DNA of 64,000 nucleotides from Minisyncoccota bacterium (GTDB lineage Bacteria > Patescibacteriota > Minisyncoccia > Minisyncoccales > RBG-13-42-11): the NCBI GenBank assembly GCA_016782605.1, contig JADHYE010000001.1:11128-75127 (forward strand). Reading direction: 5' to 3'. This document shows, piece after piece, positions 51 to 57,192 of the stretch. The stretch's first letter is position 1; the number at the start of each line of letters is the position of its first letter. A model generated the notes under the pieces. The model ran no database searches. It was given only the letters and a program-made list of their open reading frames with translations, and was not told the origin of the DNA. The position numbers and the translations under genes are program-made.

Positions 51-1616
51 ATGGCTGACGCTTTCTTAAAAGAAAATCTTTTAAGCAAAATAGCAGCTAT
101 TTTCCCCTTCAGCCAAAGAAAGCTCAAAGAGGCCTTAAACGAAAAAAAAGAGCAATTAACCAAAACTTCCGGCCTCTGCCTGCTGATCGCCCTGACCAAA
201 CAAACAAGCTCAAAAGAAAAAGAAATGATGGCTGGAAAGAAAAGCTTCAAAATGTTTTCTCTGGTCAAAGAGGTCTCCGTCCTCTTTTCCCGCTTCGCTT
301 CCATAGGAAACTCAGCTAAAGAAGTTTTTAATCGCCGAGCTTTTATTCGTAAAAGCGAAGGCAAAGAAGAGATTTATCTCTTCGCTCCCCTGCTCAAACT
401 GGTCAAAAAAGCAAAGCTTCCAAAGCCTTCCTTCAGAATAAAAATACCTTTCAGAAAACCGCAGATAAAAATAGCAAAACTTAAATTATCTCTGCCGAAA
501 ATAAAAGTGCCGAATTTCAGCAAAAAAATAATCCTGATTTTAGCCTTAATCGCCTTCCTGGCTTTGGGCTTCTTCATTTTCCAAAATGAAGAAGAAAATG
601 ACATCCAAGAATACCAAAAACAGCTCAACCAGATTCAAGAAAAAATACACCAGGCAGAATCGTATCTGATTATCGCTGATTTCAATCCGCAGGCCAAAGA
701 AAACGCCAATAACATATATAAAGAGATCTGGGACGAGCTTTCCTCCCTGGAAAATATTTCATTGAATTTGCCCAAAACTGTCGCCAGCCAAGTCCAAGTT
801 TTAAGAAACACGGTTTCAGAAGATCTTTCTAAGTTGAACAATTTCGTACAAATACCAAAGCCAGAAGAAGTTTTTAAGTTTGAAGCGAAAACATTCATTC
901 CCCAGAAAATGATTTCATTTAACAATGAAATATATTGTTTCAGCTCTTTATCGAAAAACATACTTAAAATAAACCAGGAAAACAAAGACGAAATCCTGCA
1001 AATCAACGAGAAAATAAAATCAGCAACCCTGCTCTCAGATTCAATACTTTTTTTCTCAAAACCGAACAAACTAATTAATCTGAAAAACAGCCAATTCAGC
1101 GAAGCAATATTCCTTAAAGAGCCTTCAAATGACTTTGACTTTAACGCTTTGTCCTCTTTTCGCTCAAGCCTTTACTTTCTGGAAACCAAAAGCAATTCGA
1201 TTATAAGGTACCCTTTCTCCCAAGATCTAAGCTGGGGGAATCCTGAAGCCTGGATTTCTCCGGAAACAAAAACTGCTGTTGAGTTCAAATCAATAGCAGT
1301 TGACGGTTCTGTTTGGATTTTAACGAAGGAAAACACGATTGAAAGGTACTACAACGGCAAACTGCAAGAGACGATAAATATACAAACTTTTCCTTTCGTA
1401 AAAAACCTTTCAAAAATATTCACTTCCAACCAGCTCCAATATTTATATATCCTGGAGCCGGAGCAAAAAAGAATAATCATCTTAAATAAATCAGGACAAA
1501 CAATCAGACAATACCAAAGCGACAAATTCGACAATCTCTTGGACTTTTCAATTTCCCAAGACGGAAAAACAATCTGGCTTTTAAATGGCTTAACGCTTTA
1601 TAAACTAAATCTCTAA
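51..1616 (+). CDS. hypothetical membrane-anchored protein
   Basis: 521-aa ORF. One hydrophobic helix (KKIILILALIAFLALGFFIF). The C-terminal half has repeated strand-like segments. No family recognised. Confidence 0.5.
   Translation: MADAFLKENLLSKIAAIFPFSQRKLKEALNEKKEQLTKTSGLCLLIALTKQTSSKEKEMMAGKKSFKMFSLVKEVSVLFSRFASIGNSAKEVFNRRAFIRKSEGKEEIYLFAPLLKLVKKAKLPKPSFRIKIPFRKPQIKIAKLKLSLPKIKVPNFSKKIILILALIAFLALGFFIFQNEEENDIQEYQKQLNQIQEKIHQAESYLIIADFNPQAKENANNIYKEIWDELSSLENISLNLPKTVASQVQVLRNTVSEDLSKLNNFVQIPKPEEVFKFEAKTFIPQKMISFNNEIYCFSSLSKNILKINQENKDEILQINEKIKSATLLSDSILFFSKPNKLINLKNSQFSEAIFLKEPSNDFDFNALSSFRSSLYFLETKSNSIIRYPFSQDLSWGNPEAWISPETKTAVEFKSIAVDGSVWILTKENTIERYYNGKLQETINIQTFPFVKNLSKIFTSNQLQYLYILEPEQKRIIILNKSGQTIRQYQSDKFDNLLDFSISQDGKTIWLLNGLTLYKLNL
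354..388. repeat. short palindrome module (CGAAGG..GAAGAG-ATTTAT-CTCTTCG) lying in frame inside the 51-1616 ORF
   Basis: gcgaaggcaaagaagagatttatctcttcgctcc encodes ..SEGKEEIYLFAP... The same module occurs intergenically at 10881-10907, with relatives at 15161-15191 and 63936-63966. Confidence 0.5.
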
Positions 1617-3587: not shown

Positions 3588-3850
3588 AGTGGTAATACTT
3601 AATTAATCGCGGCACGCGTCGCTTACGCTCCGCTAACACCGCTCTTTAGAAGACGAACGCAGTGAGGCGGGAAAAGAGATTTATCTCTTTGACCACTCTC
3701 GGTGCTCAATGAAGCTAAAGCTTCATTCCCCTTTCCGACATGGAATGGTTCTACTGAAACAAAAATGTCTGCTTTCCGCAGACAAAAATCAAGAAAAACT
3801 TAAAACTTTTCCTCGGCGGGTCTTATGGACGCCCACTGTCTGCGGATAAT
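3588..3850 (-). repeat. composite structured leader repeat F1, directly upstream of the rplJ ATG
   Basis: Shares the start-proximal block GCCGCGAyyTAATTArGTATTACCAyTATG and ..AAAGAGCGG.. with 33576-33870 and 57643-57794. Shares an 89-nt block (3639-3727) with 33651-33739. Confidence 0.6.
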
Positions 3851-3934
3851 ACTAATTTATTATATATCCAGAATCTTGTCAAGTGTTTCAAAAAGAGTAA
3901 GGGATCCGGTATTAAGGGCTCCCTTATGATAAAC

Positions 3935-3943
3935 ATTATACCA
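3935..3943 (-). promoter_or_regulatory. extended -10 promoter element (TGGTATAAT), candidate rplJ-rplL promoter
   Basis: Minus strand reads CCTGGTATAATG. The -35 is weak. It would give a leader of about 340 nt. Confidence 0.35.
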
Positions 3944-3992
3944 GGCATCTTTTAGTGACCTAATAATACGTATTTTAGAATTTTTGTCAAGG

Positions 3993-5021
3993 TTATTTGA
4001 AATACTTTACCTTAGCCGTATTGTGTTCGTCCAAGGTTTTGCTAAAAATAGTTTCTCCTTCCCTGGTGGAAAGATAATACCAGTAATCGCTATCTTGAAG
4101 ATAAACAGCAGCGATAATGCTTTCAAGTCCAGGATTACAAATCGGACCCAAGGGAAGCCCTTTGTATTTGTAAGTATTGTAGGGAGAATCAATTTCTGTA
4201 CCAGAAGCGATCTCTGATCTCATTTCGTCAAACGTCCAGTTTTCTTTTCCTAAGATATAAGCAATGGTGGCGCAGCTGCGCAAGGGTTCGCTATTCTCAA
4301 TCTTTCCCCAGAAAATGCCAGAAACTATTTTTTTGTCCTCCAAAGTTATTACTTCCTTCTCAAGAATACTAGCCATGGTCACTATTTCAAAAATAGTTTT
4401 GCCTTGTTTCTTAATTTCCTCTCTTAATTCAGAATTCAATTTCTTATCGAAATTAATAAGCATTTTTTCAACAACGCTTTCCATGCTTTCTTTGCTGGTT
4501 TTCTCGTAAGTATCGGGAAAAAGATATCCTTCCAGACTTAAATTCTCAGGCTTATCTCTAAGAAAAGCAAAATCAGCAGAAAAATCTTTTGAAGAAGAAC
4601 CGGTTATCGGAGAACCGACCAATCCAAAAAAATCATCAGCCCCAAATAAACCTTTGCTTTCAAAATAAGAAGCGATATCCCTTAAACTCCATCCTTCAAT
4701 AATAGTGATCTTTTCCTTTATGACATTGCCGGAAAAAAGCTTGTCAGCAATCTGAGGCATATTCATTGAAGGAGACAAAATATATTCTCCTGCTTTTAAA
4801 TAAGAAGCCATTCCCACAGTCAAAACATAAACCCGGAAAACAGGAGACCACCTTATCAATCCCTGATTTTCCAAATTCAAGCCGATGTCCCTTGAACCCT
4901 GACCCTTTTCCACGCTGAAAATAACTTCTTTTTCAGAATTCTGTTCTACGGGCAAAATAACCAGCCAGGAAGCAATCAGAACAATAATAACGACAATAAT
5001 TAAAATTAAAGATTTTTTCAC
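3993..5021 (-). CDS. mltG: endolytic murein transglycosylase, YceG/MltG family
   Basis: N-terminal TM helix followed by a YceG-like domain. The ORF-track start (5033, TTG) lies inside repeat A1. GTG at 5021-5019 gives MKKSLILII.... Confidence 0.8.
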   Translation of the reverse strand: MKKSLILIIVVIIVLIASWLVILPVEQNSEKEVIFSVEKGQGSRDIGLNLENQGLIRWSPVFRVYVLTVGMASYLKAGEYILSPSMNMPQIADKLFSGNVIKEKITIIEGWSLRDIASYFESKGLFGADDFFGLVGSPITGSSSKDFSADFAFLRDKPENLSLEGYLFPDTYEKTSKESMESVVEKMLINFDKKLNSELREEIKKQGKTIFEIVTMASILEKEVITLEDKKIVSGIFWGKIENSEPLRSCATIAYILGKENWTFDEMRSEIASGTEIDSPYNTYKYKGLPLGPICNPGLESIIAAVYLQDSDYWYYLSTREGETIFSKTLDEHNTAKVKYFK

Positions 5022-6312: not shown

Positions 6313-7534
6313 GTCTTCTTAATGCATCAACTGGTTTTAATTTAGCAGCTGTCCTGGCCGGCAGAACTCCGGAAACGCAACCGATAATAAAAGAAAAAAC
6401 CAAGCCGAAAACAACCAAACCGAGGTTTACCGAAGCAGTAAAATAGAAAACAGGATGCACCTGTCCATAGAATTCAATACCTTTGGCCAGTAAGGAACCG
6501 AGCAGAGTGCCGCCTATCCCTCCAATTAAACCGACAATGCCCGCTTCAAAAAGAAATATCAAAAGGATAGCTGAGTTTTTCGCTCCAATTGCCTTCATGA
6601 TACCTATTTCTTTAGTCCTTTCTCTGACCGAAGTAAACATGCTGTTAGTAATTCCGATGCCCCCGACAATAATGGCAATGCTGGCAAAAGCAAAAATGAC
6701 CATCTGAATTATGCCCAAAATATTGCCGGCTATCGCCCCCATTTTTTCGGAAGTGATAACGGAAAAATCAGCCTCGTCGGTTCCTGACCTTCTCTTTCTT
6801 GTTTCGCTTAAGGCTTCTTCAATTTTTTGAGCCACGACATTCTCATCCACTCCGTCTTCAAGCTTAACCATGGCATAAGCAGCAGTGCCCCGCTTTTCTC
6901 CGGTAACGTCCTGGTAGACTTTCATATCCATATATACCATACTGTCGTCCTGCTTGCTGCCCAAGGAATCGAGCACTCCTGCCACCTGGAATTTTCTTCC
7001 CTTTATCGTTATTTCCGAACCGGCTTTCACTTCCTTTGAGAAAATTTCAGTGGCCACCTGGGAACCGATTAAAACTTCGTTTCCTTTGCTCGGCCACCTT
7101 CCTTCGGTCAAACTCCAGCCCTGAAAAATGCTCAAAATATCCAAACCTTCCTTCCACGGATCATAGCCGGCGATGGCTATTTGCTTTGATTCTTCCTTAA
7201 ACCTGGCAATAGCTCCGGTATAAGAAAATCCCAAAACCTTGTCTACGCCTTCTGCTTTTTTAATCGCTTCAATGTCTTCTTTCTGCAGCTTTGCGCCACC
7301 GAACATCATGGACGTAAGAAGATCTTCATCGCTGCCCGGCATAACCATAACCATTTCTCCGCCCATGGCCTGCAGCTGCTGGTTTATCGTTGATTTCAAT
7401 CCTTCTGACAGAGAAAGCAGGGAAATTATTAAAAAAACGCCAATGACAATGCCTAAAATAGTAAGAAAACTTCTCAATGACCTTGTTCTGATATTTCTGA
7501 CGGCAATATTAAAATATTCTTTTAATTCTTCCAT
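6305..7534 (-). CDS. ABC transporter permease, MacB/FtsX type
   Basis: 409 aa. N-terminal TM helix, large extracytoplasmic domain, three C-terminal TM helices. Overlaps the neighbouring ATPase gene. Confidence 0.85.
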   Translation of the reverse strand: MEELKEYFNIAVRNIRTRSLRSFLTILGIVIGVFLIISLLSLSEGLKSTINQQLQAMGGEMVMVMPGSDEDLLTSMMFGGAKLQKEDIEAIKKAEGVDKVLGFSYTGAIARFKEESKQIAIAGYDPWKEGLDILSIFQGWSLTEGRWPSKGNEVLIGSQVATEIFSKEVKAGSEITIKGRKFQVAGVLDSLGSKQDDSMVYMDMKVYQDVTGEKRGTAAYAMVKLEDGVDENVVAQKIEEALSETRKRRSGTDEADFSVITSEKMGAIAGNILGIIQMVIFAFASIAIIVGGIGITNSMFTSVRERTKEIGIMKAIGAKNSAILLIFLFEAGIVGLIGGIGGTLLGSLLAKGIEFYGQVHPVFYFTASVNLGLVVFGLVFSFIIGCVSGVLPARTAAKLKPVDALRRHE

Positions 7535-11107: not shown

Positions 11108-11287
11108 CTAATTGGTCTTTTTAATTTTTTTTCTCATGGCTAATAAACCAATAGTAATAAATAATACTCCTGTCAATATCCATAATAGTGATGCAACTCC
11201 CGACATAACAGCTGCTCCAATAACAATCCAAATAACTCCGATAGCTATGTGAATTTGAAAAGGAAATTCTCTTTTTTGTTTTTCCAT
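11108..11287 (-). CDS. small hypothetical membrane protein (59 aa)
   Basis: Hand translation gives MEKQKREFPFQIHIAIGVIWIVIGAAVMSGVASLLWILTGVLFITIGLLAMRKKIKKTN*. Two hydrophobic helices. Below the ORF-track size cutoff. Confidence 0.3.
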   Translation of the reverse strand: MEKQKREFPFQIHIAIGVIWIVIGAAVMSGVASLLWILTGVLFITIGLLAMRKKIKKTN

Positions 11288-12690: not shown

Positions 12691-13347
12691 TTATAATTTT
12701 CCAATTGATTTGCCGTATTTTCTCCTCCAGGCTTCTATCATTTTGTGATTACCCGAAACCAAAACTTTAGGTACCCGCCATTTCTGGAAAACTTCAGGCC
12801 TGGTGTATTGCGGATATTCCATAAATCCCTTTTCCTTAGTTATCCTTTCTTTCAATAAAGCAGGTTTGCCCAAAACTCCAGGTATTAACCTTGTTATGGT
12901 TTCCATAACTATCATTCCAGGCAACTCCCCTCCCATCAAGTCGTAGTCGCCAACTGACAACTCCATATCAGCAATGTGTTTGGCTACTCTTTCATCAACC
13001 CCTTCATACCGGCCGCAAATCATAATTATCTGGTTTAATTTTGACAACTGATAAGCTGTTTTCTGATTGAATTTCTTTCCCCGGGGAGTAAATAATATGA
13101 CTTTTGTTTTGCCTTTGCCTTTTATCTTTCTAACAGCTTTATATATGGACTCTACCTTCAAAACCATACCCAGCCCTCCGCCAAAAGGCCTATCATCAAC
13201 TGTTTTGCGCTGATCTTTGGCCCAGTCCCTCAAATTATGGACATTTATCTTAATCAATTTCTTTTCCCTGGCTTTCTTAATAAAAGACTCCTTCAGATAA
13301 GAATCGAATATTTGGGGAAAGATTGTAATAATATCAAATTTAAGCAT
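12691..13347 (-). CDS. trmD: tRNA (guanine37-N1)-methyltransferase
   Basis: 218 aa, TrmD-like throughout (MLKFDIITIFPQIF..., GGELPGM). Confidence 0.9.
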   Translation of the reverse strand: MLKFDIITIFPQIFDSYLKESFIKKAREKKLIKINVHNLRDWAKDQRKTVDDRPFGGGLGMVLKVESIYKAVRKIKGKGKTKVILFTPRGKKFNQKTAYQLSKLNQIIMICGRYEGVDERVAKHIADMELSVGDYDLMGGELPGMIVMETITRLIPGVLGKPALLKERITKEKGFMEYPQYTRPEVFQKWRVPKVLVSGNHKMIEAWRRKYGKSIGKL

Positions 13348-13348
13348 A

Positions 13349-13480
13349 CCCTGTATATCAACATCCAGGCATTTTCAATGCGAAAACACCCTGAAGATTG
13401 TCTTTATTTAATAATATATTTAACATAATAACTTTGTTTGAGATTTTAATACGAAGTATTCTGGATGTTGTATTACGGGG
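13349..13480 (-). mobile_element. family A element, copy A2
   Basis: 132 bp, flanked by cata at 13345-13348 and 13481-13484. 13347-13345 is the trmD ATG. Confidence 0.7.
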
Positions 13481-13544
13481 CATAAAAACAAAAACGGCCT
13501 ATTTTGAACAATAGCACCGTTTTTGCACTCTGTAAACTTAGAGT

Positions 13545-13856: not shown

Positions 13857-13947
13857 AGTTCTTTCTGAGTTTTAGTAATTACTGATATTTATTCGTTTCT
13901 AGTAGCGCCGACCTTTCAATAAATCTGAAATGTAGCTACTGATTAGT

Positions 13948-13975
13948 ATTATATTCATTTGAACCATTTTGTCAA
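13948..13975 (-). promoter_or_regulatory. sigma70-like promoter TTGACA-N16-TATAAT
   Basis: -35 at 13975-13970 and -10 at 13953-13948 on the minus strand, upstream of the KH-domain gene. Confidence 0.6.
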
Positions 13976-23289: not shown

Positions 23290-23315
23290 AGCGGCCTTGA
23301 GAAGGCCGTTTTGCT
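23290..23315 (+). terminator. intrinsic terminator-like hairpin
   Basis: GCGGCCTT-gag-AAGGCCGTTTTG. Confidence 0.55.
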
Positions 23316-23332
23316 GTTATAGAATAAAAGAT

Positions 23333-24391
23333 ATGCTAAAGTACCAAATCATCACTTTCGGTTGCCAGATGAATAAAGCGGATTCAGAAAGAATTGCCAC
23401 GACATTAGAAAAGAAGGGCTATAAGCCGACAAAAGACTCAAACAAAGCCAATCTGGTTTTAATTAACATGTGCTCTGTCAGACAGTCAGCAGTCGATAGG
23501 GTCTATGGTAAAATCAACAATTTGAAAAAGATTAAAGTAAAAAATCCAAAACTTAAAACTATTCTTACTGGCTGTATTCTTAAAAAAGACAAAAGAAAGT
23601 TTGAAAAGTTTTTCGATGAAATTTGGAGCAATAAGAACCATTTCAAAGAAAAAGCCAAATGTCAAAACAAGTCCTTAGCTTTCGTGCCAATTTCCAACGG
23701 CTGCAATAATGCCTGTACTTACTGCGTTGTCCCATATACCAGAGGCGCTTTGAACTGCCGAAGCCATAAAGAAATACTGAAAGAAGCTAAAAGTTTTATT
23801 AAAAAAGGATTAAACCCCATTAGAAATGCGATTTCTAACGGGGCAAGGGAAATCTGGCTTTTGGGGCAGAACGTTAACGATTATCATTCGCCAACGAATA
23901 AAACAATAAATTTTGCCAGGCTTTTGGATCTGATAAATGACATTCCAGGAAACTTTAGGATTCTCTTCACATCTCCCCATCCCAAGAACTTTTCCGACGA
24001 ATTGATTGAGTCTTTAGATCGCTGCCAGAAATTCGGCAATTACCTTAACATACCCGTCCAATCGGGAAATGACCAGATATTAAAGAAAATGAACCGTAAT
24101 TATACGGCCAAAGAATATAGAAAGCTAATAGAAAAAATAAAGAAAAAGATACCGAAAATAAAGTTATCTACCGATATTATCGTCGGCTTTCCAGGAGAAA
24201 CCAAAAAACAGTTCCAAGATACGGTAAAACTGTTTAAAGAGATTAAATTTAACTGGGCCTATATTTCAAAATACTCTCCTCGTCCAGGCACCGCTGCCTT
24301 TAAATTAAAAGATGACATCTCCCTGTCAGAAAAAAAGAAAAGAGAAACCATTTTAAGAGAAATTTTAAAAAAAGCATGGAAAATAAACTAA
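23333..24391 (+). CDS. miaB: radical-SAM methylthiotransferase (MiaB-like)
   Basis: MTTase N-domain (IITFGCQMN) and radical SAM CNNACTYC. Start at MLKYQIITFG. Contains an 11-aa insertion encoded by a palindrome. Confidence 0.8.
   Translation: MLKYQIITFGCQMNKADSERIATTLEKKGYKPTKDSNKANLVLINMCSVRQSAVDRVYGKINNLKKIKVKNPKLKTILTGCILKKDKRKFEKFFDEIWSNKNHFKEKAKCQNKSLAFVPISNGCNNACTYCVVPYTRGALNCRSHKEILKEAKSFIKKGLNPIRNAISNGAREIWLLGQNVNDYHSPTNKTINFARLLDLINDIPGNFRILFTSPHPKNFSDELIESLDRCQKFGNYLNIPVQSGNDQILKKMNRNYTAKEYRKLIEKIKKKIPKIKLSTDIIVGFPGETKKQFQDTVKLFKEIKFNWAYISKYSPRPGTAAFKLKDDISLSEKKKRETILREILKKAWKIN
23815..23843. repeat. 29-bp palindrome with family-C-type arms, in frame inside miaB
   Basis: CCCCATTAGAAAT-GCG-ATTTCTAACGGGG encodes ..PIRNAISNG... 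The arms match C1 and C2 (CCCCrTTAGAAgT). Confidence 0.7.
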
Positions 24392-25260
24392 TCGTCATAT
24401 TGGGACCGACGGCTTCCGGCAAGTCGGATTTGGCCGTTAAAATAGCCAGAAAAATCAAAGCTGAAGTCATATCTGCTGATTCTAGGCAAGTCTACAAGGG
24501 AATGGATATTGGCAGCGGCAAGATAACCAAAAAAGAAATGAAAGGCATCCCCCACCACCTGCTAAACGTTGCTTCACCCAAAAAAAGATTCACGGTCAGC
24601 CAATATCAAATATTAGCAAAAAAAGCAATAAACAAAGTTTTAAAGAAAGGAAAAATCCCAATTTTATGCGGCGGAAGCGGCTTTTACATTCAAGCAGTAA
24701 TCGACGGTATAGCTATTCCAGAAGTAAAACCAGATTATACCTTAAGAATAAAACTTGAAAAGTTTACAACTGAAGAGTTATTCAAAGAATTAAAAAAACT
24801 GGACAAAGAAAGGGCGAAAAACATTGATAAAAACAACAGAAGAAGACTGATTAGAGCTTTGGAGATAGCGATTAAAACAAAAAAACCTATTCCTTCTTTA
24901 AAAAAGAATCCCCTAGCCTATCCTGTTTTGATTATCGGCATTCAAAAAGAAAAAGAAGAACTAAAAAAACTAATACAAAAAAGACTCTCAAAAAGATTAA
25001 AACAAGGAATGATTGAGGAGACAAAGAAACTCCATAAATCAGGAATCTCTTGGCAAAGACTGGAAGAATTTGGCCTGGAATACCGCTTTATCGCTCAATA
25101 TCTCCAGAATAAGATAAACTATGAAGAAGTGGTAGAACGCATACAGAAAGAAAGCGAACAGTTTGTTAAACGCCAAATGACCTGGTTTAAAAGAGATAAA
25201 CGTATTAACTGGATTAAAAACTATTCTGAAGTTGAAAAATTGATAAAAGAATTTATATAA
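24376..25260 (+). CDS. miaA: tRNA dimethylallyltransferase
   Basis: P-loop GPTASGKS and ..SADSRQVYKGMDIG. Confidence 0.9.
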   Translation: MENKLIVILGPTASGKSDLAVKIARKIKAEVISADSRQVYKGMDIGSGKITKKEMKGIPHHLLNVASPKKRFTVSQYQILAKKAINKVLKKGKIPILCGGSGFYIQAVIDGIAIPEVKPDYTLRIKLEKFTTEELFKELKKLDKERAKNIDKNNRRRLIRALEIAIKTKKPIPSLKKNPLAYPVLIIGIQKEKEELKKLIQKRLSKRLKQGMIEETKKLHKSGISWQRLEEFGLEYRFIAQYLQNKINYEEVVERIQKESEQFVKRQMTWFKRDKRINWIKNYSEVEKLIKEFI

Positions 25261-25346: not shown

Positions 25347-25532
25347 CTATAAAACCTGACAAATCTGATTAGTAGGTACAAAAAGATTAATTTCATCGGT
25401 TATCCCTGGGATTCCGGTCTTTACAATAACCGACTCAAGGCCGATGAAAACTACTTCTCCGATTTGTGGATGGGCATCGGTGAACATACGGCGGAATGTT
25501 GCCAAACCGCCCACTTTAAGATTTTGTGGCAC
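25347..25532 (-). CDS. small hypothetical protein (61 aa) with consensus expression signals
   Basis: GTG start at 25532, 8 nt after AAGGAGG (25547-25541). The ORF-track start at 25541 overlaps the SD. No family recognised. Confidence 0.45.
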   Translation of the reverse strand: MPQNLKVGGLATFRRMFTDAHPQIGEVVFIGLESVIVKTGIPGITDEINLFVPTNQICQVL

Positions 25533-25556
25533 GAATACCACCTCCTTATATATTAA

Positions 25557-25584
25557 ATTATACTACTTTTTTCTACTTTGTCAA
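25557..25584 (-). promoter_or_regulatory. consensus sigma70 promoter TTGACA-N16-TATAAT
   Basis: -35 at 25584-25579 and -10 at 25562-25557 on the minus strand, followed by the SD AAGGAGGTG. Confidence 0.65.
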
Positions 25585-33152: not shown

Positions 33153-33575
33153 TCACTCAATGGTAATGCCCATGTTCTTAGCCGTACCCTCAATTATTTT
33201 CATTGCCTGTTCGATGTCATCTGCGTTCAAATCAGGCATCTTTTTCAAAGCTATTTCTTTCAATTGTGCCCTTGAAATCTTGGCCACTTTAGTTTTATTG
33301 GGAGTGCCAGAGCCCTTTTCAATGCCAGCTGCTTTTTTCAATAATTCGGAAGCTGGCGGCTGCTTCAAGATAAAAGTATAGGTTCTGTCCTCAAAAACCG
33401 TGATTTCAACCGGAATAACGAAACCCTGGTTGTTTTTGGTCGCATCGTTGAACCTCTGGCAGAACTCGGATATGTTCACTCCGTATTGAGCCAAAACAGG
33501 ACCGACCGGAGGAGCCGGAGTCGCCAGAGCTGCTTTAATTTGAAGTTTTACGATTGCTTTTACTTTTTTTGCCAT
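33153..33575 (-). CDS. rplK: 50S ribosomal protein L11
   Basis: 140 aa. [26 protein letters not shown].. is canonical L11. Confidence 0.95.
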
Positions 33576-33870
33576 AGTGGTAATACCTAATTAAGTCGCG
33601 GCTCGCGCATATTATATATTAATATATTGCCTTCGGCGAATGTGCTACTGCCGCTCTTTAGAAGACGAACGCAGTGAGGCGGGAAAAAAGATTTATCTCT
33701 TTGACCACTCTCGGTGCTCAATGAAGCTAAAGCTTCATTTCGGTCTGCGCTTCCGTGAACGGAAGCTTGCCTTCTAACGTTTTCCACCTCATCGGCGGAA
33801 ATCCTGTTTTCCTATACGGAAGAACCTGATGGTTCTTCCGACCCATCTCCGATATGGGATACTATTACGT
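33576..33870 (-). repeat. composite structured leader repeat F2, directly upstream of the rplK ATG
   Basis: Shares the start-proximal block with F1 and F3, block 33651-33739 with F1, and block 33807-33868 with F3 (57726-57787). Confidence 0.6.
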
Positions 33871-34031
33871 TAATTATTAATTGTTCAAGCGAGGCAACAA
33901 GTTTTAAAGTAGCTCTCGGAAGCCTATTTGCATGGTTCGCCGGAAGCGAAAATAGGCTGAGAGCGCAACTCCCAAAATCTCGCAGGGATTTTGAGAAGCG
34001 GTACTTTCAAAACTTAGTTGCCGAGCACCCC

Positions 34032-34577
34032 TTATAGTTTCTTTATCTGTAAAGAATCCAGTTCAACGGGAGTATCTCTGCCAAACATATTAACCAATAC
34101 CTTTACCTTTCCCCTCTCCTGGTCAACCTCTGAAACCTTTCCGTCAAAATCCTTGAATGGGCCGTCAATAATTTTAACCAAATCCCCTGGCTTGGCTTCT
34201 ATCTTGAAATGCGGCTCATCTCCGGCAATACGCTTCTTTAAAGTTTCAATCTCTTCTACGGAAACTGGCACTGGTGTTGTGCCTGCTCCGACAAAACCAG
34301 TAACATTAGGCGTGTTTCTAACCACGTACCAGGAATCATCGGTCACGATCATTTCCACCAAAACGTAGCCAGGATAAATCTTTTCTTCTATCGTTTTTCT
34401 TTTGCCGTTCTTAATCTTAATCTTTTTCTCTTTGGGAACGATGACGTTGAATATCTTGTCTTCCATGCCCAAAGATTCAACCCTTTGCTTTAAAGCTTTG
34501 GCCACAGCGTCCTCATACCCGGAATAAGTATGGAGAACATACCAATTTTTTTCTGTGCTGATTTGCTGTTTTGGCAT
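34032..34577 (-). CDS. nusG: transcription termination/antitermination factor NusG
   Basis: NGN domain (WYVLHTYSGYE) and a KOW motif (GDLVKIIDGPFKDFDGKV). Confidence 0.9.
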   Translation of the reverse strand: MPKQQISTEKNWYVLHTYSGYEDAVAKALKQRVESLGMEDKIFNVIVPKEKKIKIKNGKRKTIEEKIYPGYVLVEMIVTDDSWYVVRNTPNVTGFVGAGTTPVPVSVEEIETLKKRIAGDEPHFKIEAKPGDLVKIIDGPFKDFDGKVSEVDQERGKVKVLVNMFGRDTPVELDSLQIKKL

Positions 34578-46035: not shown

Positions 46036-47112
46036 TTAAAATAATCTGGCAACGTCTTTTATCGTCACCAAAACCATTAATAAAAGTAATAAACTGAAAA
46101 ATACAGCTGTTATGTTCTGCTCCACTTTTTCGCTAATCGGCCTTCTCCTGATAGCTTCAATCCCCAGAAATAATATCTTGCCTCCGTCAACTGCTGGAAT
46201 GGGCAGAATATTGAAAATAGCGATATAAATGGCCACTATGCCGACAAATTGCAGAAAATAATTCGTTCCCATCTGGCTAGCCTGAGTAAAAAGATGAACG
46301 ACCCCTACCGGACCCATCAGTTCAACTCCCGAAGACTGGCCTTGAACAATATTGCTTATCACTTGGCCGTAACCTTTAATTATTGCTCCTGTCATATTAA
46401 CCGTTGCCACCAATCCCTGCCAAGGAGCCTGGTACCAGGAAAAAGACTGCATTGCTGTTCTGACTAAAGCTACGCCCAAAGGACCTTCTCCTGCTGGCGG
46501 CGAAACTCGAGGTACGACTTTGACGTCAAAAACTTCATTCCCCCTTTCAACCGTCAAAACAATCTCTTCTCCTAAATGAGTATTACTGAACTCCTGCACT
46601 TCCCGTATTTTACCAACAGCCAATTGCTCCTCGCTAATTGCCATTCCTTTTATCGTATCCCCAGGTTGTAAGCCAGCAAGTTTTGCCGGAGAGCCAGCAG
46701 AAATGCTAGCAATCTGCACTCTTGGATTAACTAAACCAGAAGCTTCATCGTCTACAGCCACTGCTGTTCCTAAATTGAAAACAATAGCAAATAGAATTGC
46801 TGCCACTATCCAAAAAGAAAGCACTCCGGCAAAAGCAATTAAAGCCCTTTTCCAGACAGCCTGACCTGAAAAACTGCGAGGGTCATTTACCTGACCTATT
46901 TCGCCCGGCATTTTTACGAAAGCACCTAGGGGCAGAAGATTTAAAGAATAAATAGTATCGCCAATTTTTTTTCCGAATATCCTGGGAGGGAAACCTATGC
47001 CAAATTCTTCAACTTTTACTCCGAATTTCTTTGCTACGATAAAATGGCCGAATTCGTGAAGAGTTACTAGCCCTATTAAGCTTAAAGAAGCGATAAGAAT
47101 TGTTAAAAACAT
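46036..47112 (-). CDS. rseP: site-2 (RseP-type, M50) zinc metalloprotease
   Basis: HEFGHF motif, PDZ-like segment, several TM helices. Confidence 0.85.
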   Translation of the reverse strand: MFLTILIASLSLIGLVTLHEFGHFIVAKKFGVKVEEFGIGFPPRIFGKKIGDTIYSLNLLPLGAFVKMPGEIGQVNDPRSFSGQAVWKRALIAFAGVLSFWIVAAILFAIVFNLGTAVAVDDEASGLVNPRVQIASISAGSPAKLAGLQPGDTIKGMAISEEQLAVGKIREVQEFSNTHLGEEIVLTVERGNEVFDVKVVPRVSPPAGEGPLGVALVRTAMQSFSWYQAPWQGLVATVNMTGAIIKGYGQVISNIVQGQSSGVELMGPVGVVHLFTQASQMGTNYFLQFVGIVAIYIAIFNILPIPAVDGGKILFLGIEAIRRRPISEKVEQNITAVFFSLLLLLMVLVTIKDVARLF

Positions 47113-47113
47113 A

Positions 47114-47245
47114 CCCTGTATATCAACATCCAGGCATTTTCAATGCGAAAACACCCTGAAGATTGTCTTTATTTAATAATATATTTAACATAATAACTTT
47201 GTTTGAGATTTTAATACGAAGTATTCTGGATGTTGTATCACGGGG
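47114..47245 (-). mobile_element. family A element, copy A5
   Basis: 132 bp, flanked by cata at 47110-47113 and 47246-47249. 47112-47110 is the rseP ATG. Confidence 0.7.
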
Positions 47246-47249
47246 CATA

Positions 47250-47810
47250 TTATTCTGATATTTCTTTTTTCTTATTCTCTCCCATTTCTTCTATCTTTTT
47301 ATTGTAATCGTCAACCAACTCCTGAAGCTCGTCTTTAGCCCGGAACTTGTCATCCTCCCTGATTTCTCCCTGTTTTGTTTTATCCTGGATTTCACTCCAA
47401 ACCTCTTCCCTCCACTTTCTAATAGTCCTTCTTGACTGTTCTTCTTTTTCCGCAATGGTCCTGGTTAAATTCTTCCTGTATTCTTCGTTCAAAGGCGGCA
47501 AATTAATCCTGACTGCATCCTTGTCAACAATTGGATTAGCGCCGATTCCCGTCTTTTCCAAAGCTGAAACAATGCCTTCGATATAAGACTTATCCCAAGG
47601 CTGAATTAAAATCTGCTTTGCCTCAGGTGTAGAAATGGCAGCCAATTGTTTTAAAGGAAACTTCTGGCCGAAACAGTCAACAACAACATCCTCCACCAAA
47701 GAAGGCGTTGCCCTGCTGGTACGAATCTTATTCATTTCCTTTTCTAAAAAGCCGATTACCTTGTCTAATTCCGGTTTAATATTTTGAATGATTGTTTTGT
47801 AGCTATCCAT
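47250..47810 (-). CDS. frr: ribosome recycling factor
   Basis: 186 aa, Frr-like throughout (..IRTSRATPSLVE..). Confidence 0.95.
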   Translation of the reverse strand: MDSYKTIIQNIKPELDKVIGFLEKEMNKIRTSRATPSLVEDVVVDCFGQKFPLKQLAAISTPEAKQILIQPWDKSYIEGIVSALEKTGIGANPIVDKDAVRINLPPLNEEYRKNLTRTIAEKEEQSRRTIRKWREEVWSEIQDKTKQGEIREDDKFRAKDELQELVDDYNKKIEEMGENKKKEISE

Positions 47811-47811
47811 A

Positions 47812-47943
47812 CCCTGTGTATCAACATCCAGGCATTTTCAATGCGAAAACATCCTGAAGATTGTTTTTATTTAATAATATATTTAACATAATAACTTTGT
47901 TTGAGATTTTAATACGAAGTATTCTGGATGTTGTATTACGGGG
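47812..47943 (-). mobile_element. family A element, copy A6
   Basis: 132 bp, flanked by cata at 47808-47811 and 47944-47947. 47810-47808 is the frr ATG. Confidence 0.7.
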
Positions 47944-47951
47944 CATAAAAA

Positions 47952-51134: not shown

Positions 51135-51893
51135 TCACAGAGCAGATAACTTCTCCTCAACTCCACTGATGTGGAATTTAGCACTCAGCCCAGTCTCCTT
51201 CTGAGACCTCTCATATAACTTTATGGCCGTTCTGTACTCCGTCTTTGCTCTTCGTGTCTCTCCGATTTCCCTAAGGGCATCGGCCTTGTTCTGTTTGGCA
51301 TGCCCCGCTGTTCGGAGATCTCCCTTTGCCAAAGCAGTCTTATGCACCTTTTCGCACACTTGAACACTCTCAGCGAACCTTCCCTCACGACGAAGGGTAA
51401 TGGCCTTGGTATTCCAAACCGATGGCTCTTCGGAGAATGATGCAACAGCCTTATTGATAACTGACCAAGTCTCTGGCTTTTTATCTAAAAGCCAAAGTGC
51501 CAAGGGCAGCCCATTCAAACAGGAAATTTTCCTGCTTTTGTTTCTGGTATTAAGAGCTTCCCGAAACGAAAGCTCTGCTAGTTTAAGGTTGCCCTTCCTG
51601 GTTGCGACCGGGCCTTTGATTGAGATATAATAGTAATCCCATCCCAATATCCGGTTAGCCTCGGCAATCTCTTCTTTGCCGGTTAAACTTACTTTGTTCT
51701 TCTTGATCAAGGCAACTGACTCATCATATTTACCATCTGCATACAATTTCTTAGCCAGTTTCAAGATCTTTTGGGCCGGCATCGCTTTGGCAATTTCCTG
51801 CTCTTTTTTAAAGAACAGATAAACCATTGCATTGCAACCGGTAACAAAGCCCAATAGCAAGATAAATCCTGCTGAAAGAAAAAACTCTGCCAT
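51135..51893 (-). CDS. membrane-anchored TPR-like repeat protein, GC-richer than its surroundings
   Basis: 252 aa with an N-terminal TM helix and helical repeats. Preceded by AAAGGAGGTG (51908-51899), 5 nt before the ATG. Confidence 0.45.
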   Translation of the reverse strand: MAEFFLSAGFILLLGFVTGCNAMVYLFFKKEQEIAKAMPAQKILKLAKKLYADGKYDESVALIKKNKVSLTGKEEIAEANRILGWDYYYISIKGPVATRKGNLKLAELSFREALNTRNKSRKISCLNGLPLALWLLDKKPETWSVINKAVASFSEEPSVWNTKAITLRREGRFAESVQVCEKVHKTALAKGDLRTAGHAKQNKADALREIGETRRAKTEYRTAIKLYERSQKETGLSAKFHISGVEEKLSAL

Positions 51894-52066
51894 CTCGGCA
51901 CCTCCTTTCTTTATTTCTTATCTTTCGTTAATATATTAATCAAATCCTTACCTTGCAGGATATAATATGAATTCAACCTCCATCTCTCTTCTCTGCTCCT
52001 CACCATATATATCAACCCATATTGGACATAAAATGAACCACCGCTCCCCTCCTTCTACAATCACAT

Positions 52067-52095
52067 ATATTACCACGCTCTTTCCAAAATGTCAA
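52067..52095 (-). promoter_or_regulatory. consensus sigma70 promoter TTGACA-N17-TAATAT
   Basis: -35 at 52095-52090 and -10 at 52072-52067 on the minus strand. Would give a leader of about 170 nt to the 51893 ATG. TTGA of the -35 is also the flanking repeat of element C2. Confidence 0.6.
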
Positions 52096-52165
52096 CCCCA
52101 TTAGAAGTCCGCCTTGCCGGAGGCATGGCGACAGCCACCAAGGGGGCAGCTTACTTCTAACGGAG
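52096..52165. mobile_element. family C hairpin element, copy C2
   Basis: 70 bp. Arms are ccccattagaagt / acttctaacggag with a GC-rich interior. Flanked by tcaa at 52092-52095 and 52166-52169. Confidence 0.6.
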
Positions 52166-56422: not shown

Positions 56423-57052
56423 TTATTTTGAGTAAAACTCGAAAATTGCGGAGAGTTCTGCCGGTGGGACAGCCTCTTCTAAATTTGGTGAATCGATGAC
56501 CTTTGCCTCCAGCTTCTCAGCGTCTAATTTGAGCCAAGACGGAGGATTATATTTTTTTAAAGTAGATGATAATTTCTGGAAAATTGTTTTTTTTAAAGAA
56601 TTGGGGTTAACGCTTATTTTGTCCCCTTTCTTAACCAGATAGCTGGAAATATTAATCGGCCTGTCGTTAACCATAAGATGGCTGTGGGAAACCATTTGTC
56701 TGGCAGCAAATTTGGAAGGAGCGAAACCTAATCTGAAAACTACATTGTCCAAGCGGCTCTCCAAAGTTTTAATTAAAGCAGCGCCGGCATCCGTCACCTT
56801 TCCCCTGGCCTTTAAAATATCTTTGACGTAGTTCCTGAATTGCTTCTCTTCCAAATTATACCAGTTCTTTAATTTTTGTTTTTCCCTTAATTCTTTACCG
56901 TATTCAGAAAGCGATTTCACTCTTTTTTTAGCTTTTGGCCCTGGCGGATAAGGTTTTTTGATCATTGGGCATTTCTGCGATGAGCACCTTTCGCCTCTCA
57001 AAAAAAGCTTAATTCCTGCACGACGGCAAATTTTGCATTTAGAAACATTCAT
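56423..57052 (-). CDS. rpsD: 30S ribosomal protein S4
   Basis: 209 aa with an N-terminal zinc-ribbon-like CKICRR..C segment and an S4 domain. Confidence 0.95.
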   Translation of the reverse strand: MNVSKCKICRRAGIKLFLRGERCSSQKCPMIKKPYPPGPKAKKRVKSLSEYGKELREKQKLKNWYNLEEKQFRNYVKDILKARGKVTDAGAALIKTLESRLDNVVFRLGFAPSKFAARQMVSHSHLMVNDRPINISSYLVKKGDKISVNPNSLKKTIFQKLSSTLKKYNPPSWLKLDAEKLEAKVIDSPNLEEAVPPAELSAIFEFYSK

Positions 57053-57053
57053 A

Positions 57054-57185
57054 CCCTGTATATCAACATCCAGGCATTTTCAATGCGAAAATATCCTGAA
57101 GGCTGTCTTTATTTAATAATATATTTAACATAATAACTTTGTTTGATATTTTAATACGAAGTATTCTGGATGTTGTATTACAAGG
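57054..57185 (-). mobile_element. family A element, copy A8
   Basis: 132 bp, flanked by cata at 57050-57053 and 57186-57189. 57052-57050 is the rpsD ATG. Confidence 0.7.
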
Positions 57186-57192
57186 CATAAGT

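Follow-up and report, generated by a model that had tools for sequence, protein, structure and literature searches.

A micro-gene of 61 codons lies between gatB and miaA in a Minisyncoccota bacterium (contig JADHYE010000001.1 of assembly GCA_016782605.1; the analyzed stretch of 64,000 nucleotides (nt), contig positions 11,128 to 75,127, is referred to as the window). Comparison of its codons with those of homologues indicates that this is a genuine conserved protein-coding gene under purifying selection. The corresponding loci of relatives mark it as a stable member of a fast-turnover island of small, individually expressed genes, each led by a Shine-Dalgarno (SD) sequence. We think it likely, with some caution, that the micro-gene is expressed independently and that its product is a small, abundant protein with a binding or adaptor role, whose mRNA would enter translation by a privileged SD route.

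Anatomy and conservation of the micro-gene

The initial annotation had described a TTGACA-N16-TATAAT promoter and an open reading frame (ORF) of 61 codons with a GTG start. Both are present, and the translation is identical to the peptide reported there. All features of the gene lie on the minus strand, which had not been stated (Table 1). The SD was likewise found, but the spacing of 8 nt given for it counts from AAGGAGG, while AAGGAGGTG as a whole stands 6 nt from the GTG. An upstream in-frame GTG at 25541, three codons earlier, is where the program-made ORF list begins. It was rejected as a start since it sits inside the SD, and 25532 was taken instead because homologues open with ATG at the equivalent position.

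The hairpin that the micro-gene was said to have in common with miaA is real: it is placed between the convergent stops of the two genes and folds with -22 kcal/mol (z = -3.2). The window has a short, interrupted U-tract behind it (UUUAAAUUU), whereas relatives show a clearer one. A generic terminator scan did not list this hairpin, as its loop is above the limit of the scan. Homologues keep the hairpin: compensatory double changes affect 5 pairs of the stem, or 6 of 13 when all predicted pairs are counted. As had been proposed, the gene is self-contained, having a promoter, an SD and a putative terminator to itself, and we infer that the unit is a monocistronic promoter-SD-ORF-terminator cassette. 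In this cassette, a sigma-70-type consensus promoter would start transcription at about 25550 and, judging from its consensus signals, would do so strongly and constitutively. Of the resulting monocistronic mRNA of about 265 nt, the first 18 nt or so would form the leader, nearly all of it extended SD; the mRNA would be translated from GTG 25532 and end at the hairpin.

A word-indexed protein search returned only the micro-gene itself. When 1.84 billion cluster representatives were scanned exhaustively with HMMER, three true relatives of 61-64 amino acids (aa) emerged; three further matches below 1e-3 were long proteins with TPR-like or comparable repeats, and we discarded them as false positives. 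After profile searches, the family comprised 17 homologues of 45-64 aa. Nine distinct loci were compared by codon: all have exactly 61 codons without any insertion or deletion, and the ratio of nonsynonymous to synonymous substitution rates (dN/dS) is about 0.15-0.35 for unsaturated pairs. The initial annotation had held that the idea would fall if relatives did not conserve the ORF; they keep it under purifying selection. The family is new and narrowly distributed. A scan of GTDB species representatives with the family profile revealed no member, and neither did a six-frame hmmsearch of the gatB loci of 80 species-representative relatives (GatB 49-73% identical).

The chromosomal position stays constant while the family diverges to 38% protein identity (38-59%). 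The order is SHMT-FolD-...-GatB, zero to three small genes, the micro-gene and then a convergent miaA or miaB-miaA fusion. The expression signals are conserved as well. In all homologue loci, the SD has the form AAGGAGGT(G/T) and stands 5-6 nt ahead of the start; in several relatives it reads AAGGAGGTGA, a perfect complement of 10 nt to the canonical 16S tail TCACCTCCTT, compared with 9 nt for AAGGAGGTG of the window. A dedicated promoter about 52 nt ahead of the start occurs in six of the relatives' loci (L002, L003, L004, L016, L017 and L105). Its consensus is cTTGACAAAA-N12-GTAGTATAAT, with a conserved spacer TTGACAAAA-N12-GTAGTATAAT and a variant -10 hexamer, TATACT, in L016.

Fold of the product

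The initial annotation had suggested profile searches and structure prediction. The micro-protein has no Pfam match at E up to 10, also none to the MraZ family (PF02381), no PHROG match and no PADLOC match. NCBIfam holds no family for any of 10 members tested, and a sequence-profile search of the PDB gave noise only (E at least 0.03). Profiles of KOW and Tudor sequence families did not match significantly, and neither an aromatic cage nor a KOW motif could be verified. AlphaFold2 yielded a poor model from the single sequence (predicted local distance difference test (pLDDT) 55). When supplied with the 10-member family alignment, it returned five strands at a pLDDT of 85.1. According to this model, the product is a five-stranded, partly open SH3-like barrel of the Tudor/KOW/NdhS class with about 55-60 residues.

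Invariant in the family are G8, F13, R14, R15, D19, G25, G31, V37, G40 and F51. The stretch F-R-R-x-(F/L)-x-D starts at the end of strand 1 and continues into the first loop, and this loop would face the side on which SH3 and Tudor domains usually bind their ligands. The window protein has an isoelectric point (pI) of 5.5 and a net charge of -1.4. Its likeness to stand-alone SH3-like barrels (Tudor, the KOW domain of NusG/Spt5, NdhS (Tlr0636/Ssl0352), PsaE and bL19) exists at the level of the fold only: identity to most fold matches is 6-16%, with a maximum of 28% (Ski2), and no Pfam or PDB sequence match accompanies it. In the explanation that we favor, the small 61-aa barrel would be soluble and work by binding or as an adaptor, with a nucleic acid or a protein as its partner.

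Were the ORF incidental, the functional product could be a small RNA or a regulatory leader. A short transcript with a strong promoter and a terminator, as well as a GC content slightly above that of the flanks, would suit such an RNA. However, dN/dS is well below 1, and frame length, SD and start codon are conserved. Rfam 15, searched at E up to 10, returned only sub-threshold noise from eukaryotic microRNA and small nucleolar RNA families for the locus, and tRNAs only for the whole window. In addition, the AlphaFold model becomes confident once homologues are supplied. We consider an RNA product highly improbable.

The island between gatB and miaA

The promoter of the micro-gene corresponds to a conserved promoter at the end of gatB, which in sister genomes drives other small genes (MraZ-like and CheY-like). 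The nearest species representatives keep it ahead of other small SD-led genes. In the relatives (Table 1), all small genes of the island have a strong SD of their own, and most also have a consensus promoter. Even where an MraZ-like gene with a near-identical promoter lies upstream (L016, L102), the micro-gene has retained its own promoter. The SD is not exclusive to the micro-gene: it also precedes two further genes of the window and every small island gene of the relatives. Gene content is hypervariable beside near-identical copies of the micro-gene (L004, L005, L015, L016, L017). The upstream neighbours in L016, L011, L021 and L022 match Pfam MraZ with E-values from 2.8e-13 to 5e-5. The small island ORFs of 52-179 aa (L005, L015, L017, L104, L020 and L021) gave no significant Pfam match.

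Table 1. Features of the micro-gene and its flanks in the window, and genes found downstream of gatB in relatives, locus by locus
Locus	Feature	Position	Strand	Remark
Window	-35 hexamer TTGACA	25584-25579	minus	followed by 16-nt spacer; promoter matches consensus at 12/12 positions
Window	-10 hexamer TATAAT	25562-25557	minus	within conserved context GTAGTATAAT
Window	Extended SD AAGGAGGTG	25547-25539	minus	GGAGG core ends 8 nt ahead of start codon
Window	Coding sequence, 61 codons, GTG start at 25532	25532-25350; stop TAG 25349-25347	minus	NCBI hypothetical protein ISS83_00225, Candidatus Pacebacteria
Window	Terminator-like hairpin	25319-25284	minus	12-bp stem (25319-25308 / 25295-25284), 12-nt loop, U/A-rich tail
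Window	81-nt insertion, this genome only	25665-25585	minus	between gatB end and promoter; long imperfect palindrome
Window	gatB	27147-25654	minus	upstream, same strand as micro-gene; Pfam GatB_N and GatB_Yqey
Window	miaA	24376-25260	plus	convergent downstream neighbour; Pfam IPPT; place kept in L016, L101-L103, L105
L005	71, 56 and 52 aa, then micro-gene	368-1104		small ORFs
L011	64-aa MraZ/AbrB-like, then micro-gene			single-domain
L015	85 aa, then micro-gene	224-481 (85-aa ORF)
L016, L102	149-aa MraZ-like, then micro-gene			also matches Pfam MazE_antitoxin
L017	micro-gene, then 179 aa	1318-1857 (179-aa ORF)
L020	72-aa protein	6482-6700		no significant Pfam match
L021	small ORF region of island	3680-4116
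L021, L022, L023	MraZ-family proteins			best Pfam E 5e-11; L023 falls slightly short of the Pfam cut-off
L030	CheY-like receiver
L104	two other small genes and IS200/IS605 transposase	737-1380 (small genes)

By eye, the 85-aa protein of L015 and the 179-aa protein of L017 appear related to each other. The 56-aa ORF of L005 ('KGD...GEV') was considered as a paralogue of the micro-protein and dismissed, as hhalign gave a probability of 0.5% and homology was not detectable. As to the downstream neighbours, miaB and miaA are separate but overlapping in the window (23297-24391 and 24376-25260), while they are fused into a protein of about 640-655 aa (Pfam Radical_SAM and IPPT) in L016 (1636-3558), L101 (647-2569), L103 (892-2814) and L021 (4155-6122).

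In our proposal, the micro-protein would be functionally tied to this island of small genes, possibly to the MraZ-family regulator that heads it in relatives. MraZ proteins autoregulate their own promoters. The island resembles the MraZ-led operons behind the mraZ promoter of the dcw cluster in that, in relatives, an MraZ-family gene stands at its head behind a conserved strong promoter. It differs from them in that the MraZ-like gene follows gatB, has no rsmH or fts genes after it and does not share its promoter with the micro-gene.

Such neighbours may also be read as one half of a toxin-antitoxin-like pair, in which the micro-protein would be a small toxin or co-regulator next to a partner of the MraZ/AbrB/MazE fold, and the window copy an orphan. 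The 64-aa protein directly upstream in L011 and the MazE_antitoxin match of the 149-aa proteins in L016 and L102 are in line with this, and so are the fast turnover of island genes and the IS200/IS605 transposase beside the gene in L104. The toxins MazF and CcdB are SH3-like barrels as well. However, toxins of the MazF type have about 110 aa, and the micro-protein is about half that size. In the window and in L002, L003, L004 and L105, the micro-gene stands without any partner under a consensus promoter and SD; such lone copies are incompatible with an unneutralized toxin. Where the MraZ-like gene is present, the two genes lie 139-270 nt apart with separate promoters, and there is neither overlap nor translational coupling. 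PADLOC, Pfam and NCBIfam gave no toxin or antitoxin match, and the position among housekeeping genes is fixed over 38-59% protein identity, unlike that of mobile toxin-antitoxin modules. What the locus has in common with type II systems that use AbrB/MazE-fold antitoxins is the small protein of the AbrB/MazE/MraZ fold immediately upstream in some relatives; it departs from them in that the micro-gene often lacks a partner, has its own promoter and does not form an obligate bicistronic pair. We therefore regard a toxin-antitoxin function as unlikely. The initial annotation had offered a regulator, a toxin, an antitoxin or a structural protein; these options narrow only slightly. A small binding or regulatory protein is the best guess, and a stand-alone toxin is improbable, given that the gene occurs by itself behind a consensus promoter in four lineages. 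For the structural option, nothing supports a membrane or secreted type, and by eye there is neither a signal peptide nor a transmembrane segment.

The site has also received insertions. The 81-nt insertion between gatB and the promoter is opposed by a clean gap of 81 nt in an alignment with L002, L003 and L105. In these three loci, the -35 hexamer overlaps the last codons of gatB (...I L T K stop). In the window, the insertion is flanked by duplicated TTGACA and the gatB stop is re-created (...I L T R stop). The old gatB end, TTGACAAAGTAG, was left as the -35 region of the promoter after the insertion, so that the -35 hexamer TTGACA of the micro-gene is at the same time a relic of the former GatB C-terminus (TTG ACA AAG TAG, L T K stop). 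The inserted sequence folds with -36.3 kcal/mol (z = -6.2) and occurs as a single copy in the window.

A repeat found elsewhere in the window is an element of about 140 nt with five intergenic copies (13346-13483, 41788-41925, 47105-47254, 47809-47946 and 57051-57188). It has terminal inverted repeats of 23 nt (ATACCCTGTATATCAACATCCAG ... CTGGATGTTGTATTACGGGGCAT) and the appearance of a miniature inverted-repeat transposable element; each copy contains the same spurious ORF of 41 aa ('MPRNTTSRILRIKISNKVIMLNILLNK...').

The island as a whole could be a mobile or phage-derived relic of the 'moron' type, in which case the strong promoter and SD would reflect a foreign origin. Its hypervariable content around near-identical micro-gene copies, the organization of each small gene as an autonomous promoter-SD-gene unit and the insertions at the site (81 nt in the window, IS200/IS605 in L104) fit this picture, and many small uncharacterized phage proteins share the fold. 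On the other hand, there is no PHROG match, the matches in BFVD are not significant (E at least 0.01), and no integrase or att-like features were seen. The single chromosomal position and the purifying selection down to 38% identity also speak against it. Furthermore, the -35 context TTGACAAA recurs at the promoter of a KH-protein gene of the host, which suggests that this is the host's own promoter consensus. We doubt that the island is such a relic.

Initiation in a genome poor in Shine-Dalgarno sequences

Both signals of the micro-gene lie far above chance expectation in the window. Perfect TTGACA-N16-18-TATAAT promoters occur twice in 64 kb on both strands, compared with 0.02 expected from shuffles; the runner-up within 20-32 kb scores 10/12. 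The count of AAGGAGGTG is 3, with 0.45 expected. A true SD, with a core of at least 5 nt at proper spacing from a true start, precedes 3 of about 68 window genes, namely the micro-gene and the genes at 51893 and 5021 (both minus). The claim that most genes of this genome lack an SD thus agrees with the window, where about 95% are SD-less by this count. Under deliberately generous criteria, the window counts 8 of 65 genes and the set of 80 relatives 90 of 666. The SD-less examples that had been given hold up as well: no SD core precedes thrS, miaA or glyA, and folA has only AGGA at 14 nt.

The second perfect consensus promoter, at 13975 (region 13857-13975, minus), serves a KH-domain (YlqC-like) gene via an SD-less leader of about 90 nt. 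In the relative L026 (about 6490-6636), a KH-domain gene directly follows gatB; its TTGACAAA promoter is similar, and its leader is again long and SD-less. Textbook signals also lead the gene at 51893 (region 51893-52110, minus): a TTGACA-N17-TAATAT promoter, preceded by TG, stands at about 52096, and GAAGGAGGGG occurs within the leader of about 170 nt. AAGGAGGTG is followed by 5 nt and ATG, and the product is a putative membrane protein of 252 aa. Its long leader might be regulatory. The third SD-led gene of the window (3993-5021, minus) has GGAGGT, 11 nt and GTG, and its 342-aa product has a transmembrane segment at the N-terminus.

Since about 95% of the genes are SD-less, the conserved SD probably marks a special initiation route, that is, a privileged or separately controlled initiation for the micro-gene and the island mRNAs. 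AAGGAGGTG would pair with the canonical 16S tail TCACCTCCTT, a view that presupposes a 16S 3' tail with CACCUCCUU. The extended complementarity to this tail ahead of many unrelated island genes indirectly suggests that the anti-SD is present and used.

Several results weigh against our proposal. With regard to SD pairing, neither the 64-kb window nor the compared loci of relatives contain a 16S rRNA gene. In addition, rplA (uL1) is absent from its canonical place after nusG-rplK in the window. This agrees with the Parcubacteria that lack uL1, whose anti-SD motif is reported to go undetected often (PMC9297842). With regard to function, all Foldseek matches in PDB and BFVD were generic SH3-like folds short of significance (best E 0.01-0.04); with so generic a fold and such weak E-values, the structure provides no functional assignment. 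The net charge spans -1.4 to +7.5 over the family, and this variability speaks against a constant role in binding polyanions, like that of a chromatin or ribosomal protein. None of the 17 family members is a fused, longer or 'Rosetta stone' variant. Finally, no MraZ-like gene lies within the window, and the link to MraZ comes from synteny in relatives.

In the survey by Tsurumaki et al., the anti-SD motif was undetected in about half of the Parcubacteria (PMC9297842). The nusG region of the window (33153-34577, minus) consists of nusG, a gap of 456 nt, rplK (uL11) and then a dCMP deaminase gene in the place of rplA.

The closest precedent for a tiny SD-led gene in a lineage almost free of SDs is rpsU (bS21) of the Flavobacteriia, a gene of about 60-70 codons with an extended SD (PMC9976891, PMC13000453, PMC7797042). 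It is a single strong-SD gene that is preferentially translated by ribosomes lacking bS21 (PMC9976891, PMC13000453). By analogy, the micro-protein might be a lineage-specific component associated with the ribosome or translation, with its SD serving feedback. In favor are the tiny size of the gene and its extended SD within a genome poor in SDs, the situation of rpsU in Flavobacterium johnsoniae (PMC9976891, PMC13000453), as well as neighbours related to translation and tRNA (gatB, miaA, miaB, thrS). SH3/KOW-like barrels are common in ribosomal proteins, and bL19 and eL21 are among the fold matches. Moreover, ribosomes of the Candidate Phyla Radiation (CPR) lack several universal ribosomal proteins (PMC9297842), and bL38 of the Bacteroidia is an example of a new, tiny, lineage-specific one (PMC11851116). 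Identity with bS21 itself was rejected: there is no Ribosomal_S21 or NCBIfam match, the model is all-beta rather than helical, and a pI of 5.5 is not basic. More generally, the family is not consistently basic and is confined to a narrow clade, being absent from relatives with 49-73% identical GatB. Nor is an SD peculiar to the micro-gene: two membrane-protein genes of the window and, in relatives, every gene of the island have one. In contrast to rpsU, the micro-gene thus encodes a near-neutral beta-barrel and is not the sole SD-led gene of its genome. Attractive by analogy, a ribosomal role nonetheless seems unlikely to us.

We return to the privileged SD route proposed above. In a more far-reaching form, for which we see an outside chance, the gatB-miaA island of this SD-poor, uL1-lacking Parcubacteria lineage would be a small regulon of tiny strong-SD genes, most of them with the same consensus promoter, that are translated by a distinct initiation route, with the SH3-like protein as its conserved core member. 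This route could involve a sub-population of ribosomes or a condition that exposes the anti-SD to SDs of up to 10 nt, and the SH3-like protein itself may possibly act on the ribosome or on RNA polymerase. If true, such a regulon would give the CPR its own version of the bS21/anti-SD switch known from the Bacteroidia. If, instead, the 16S rRNA of this clade turned out to be without an anti-SD, the conserved AAGGAGGTGA would have a non-ribosomal reader.

Taken alone, the micro-gene yields an orphan micro-protein confined to its lineage, with a very common fold and expression signals of the canonical kind; it is useful for annotation and unsurprising. Its value lies in the context, where strong SDs, several of them near-perfect complements of 9-10 nt, have been kept over long divergence in an SD-poor member of the CPR. 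As a ready, strong expression cassette, the promoter-SD module may serve future CPR genetics. Above all, the locus is a compact natural test case for whether SD-dependent initiation is still running in reduced ribosomes, and for whether it is reserved for a special set of genes, as with rpsU in the Bacteroidia.

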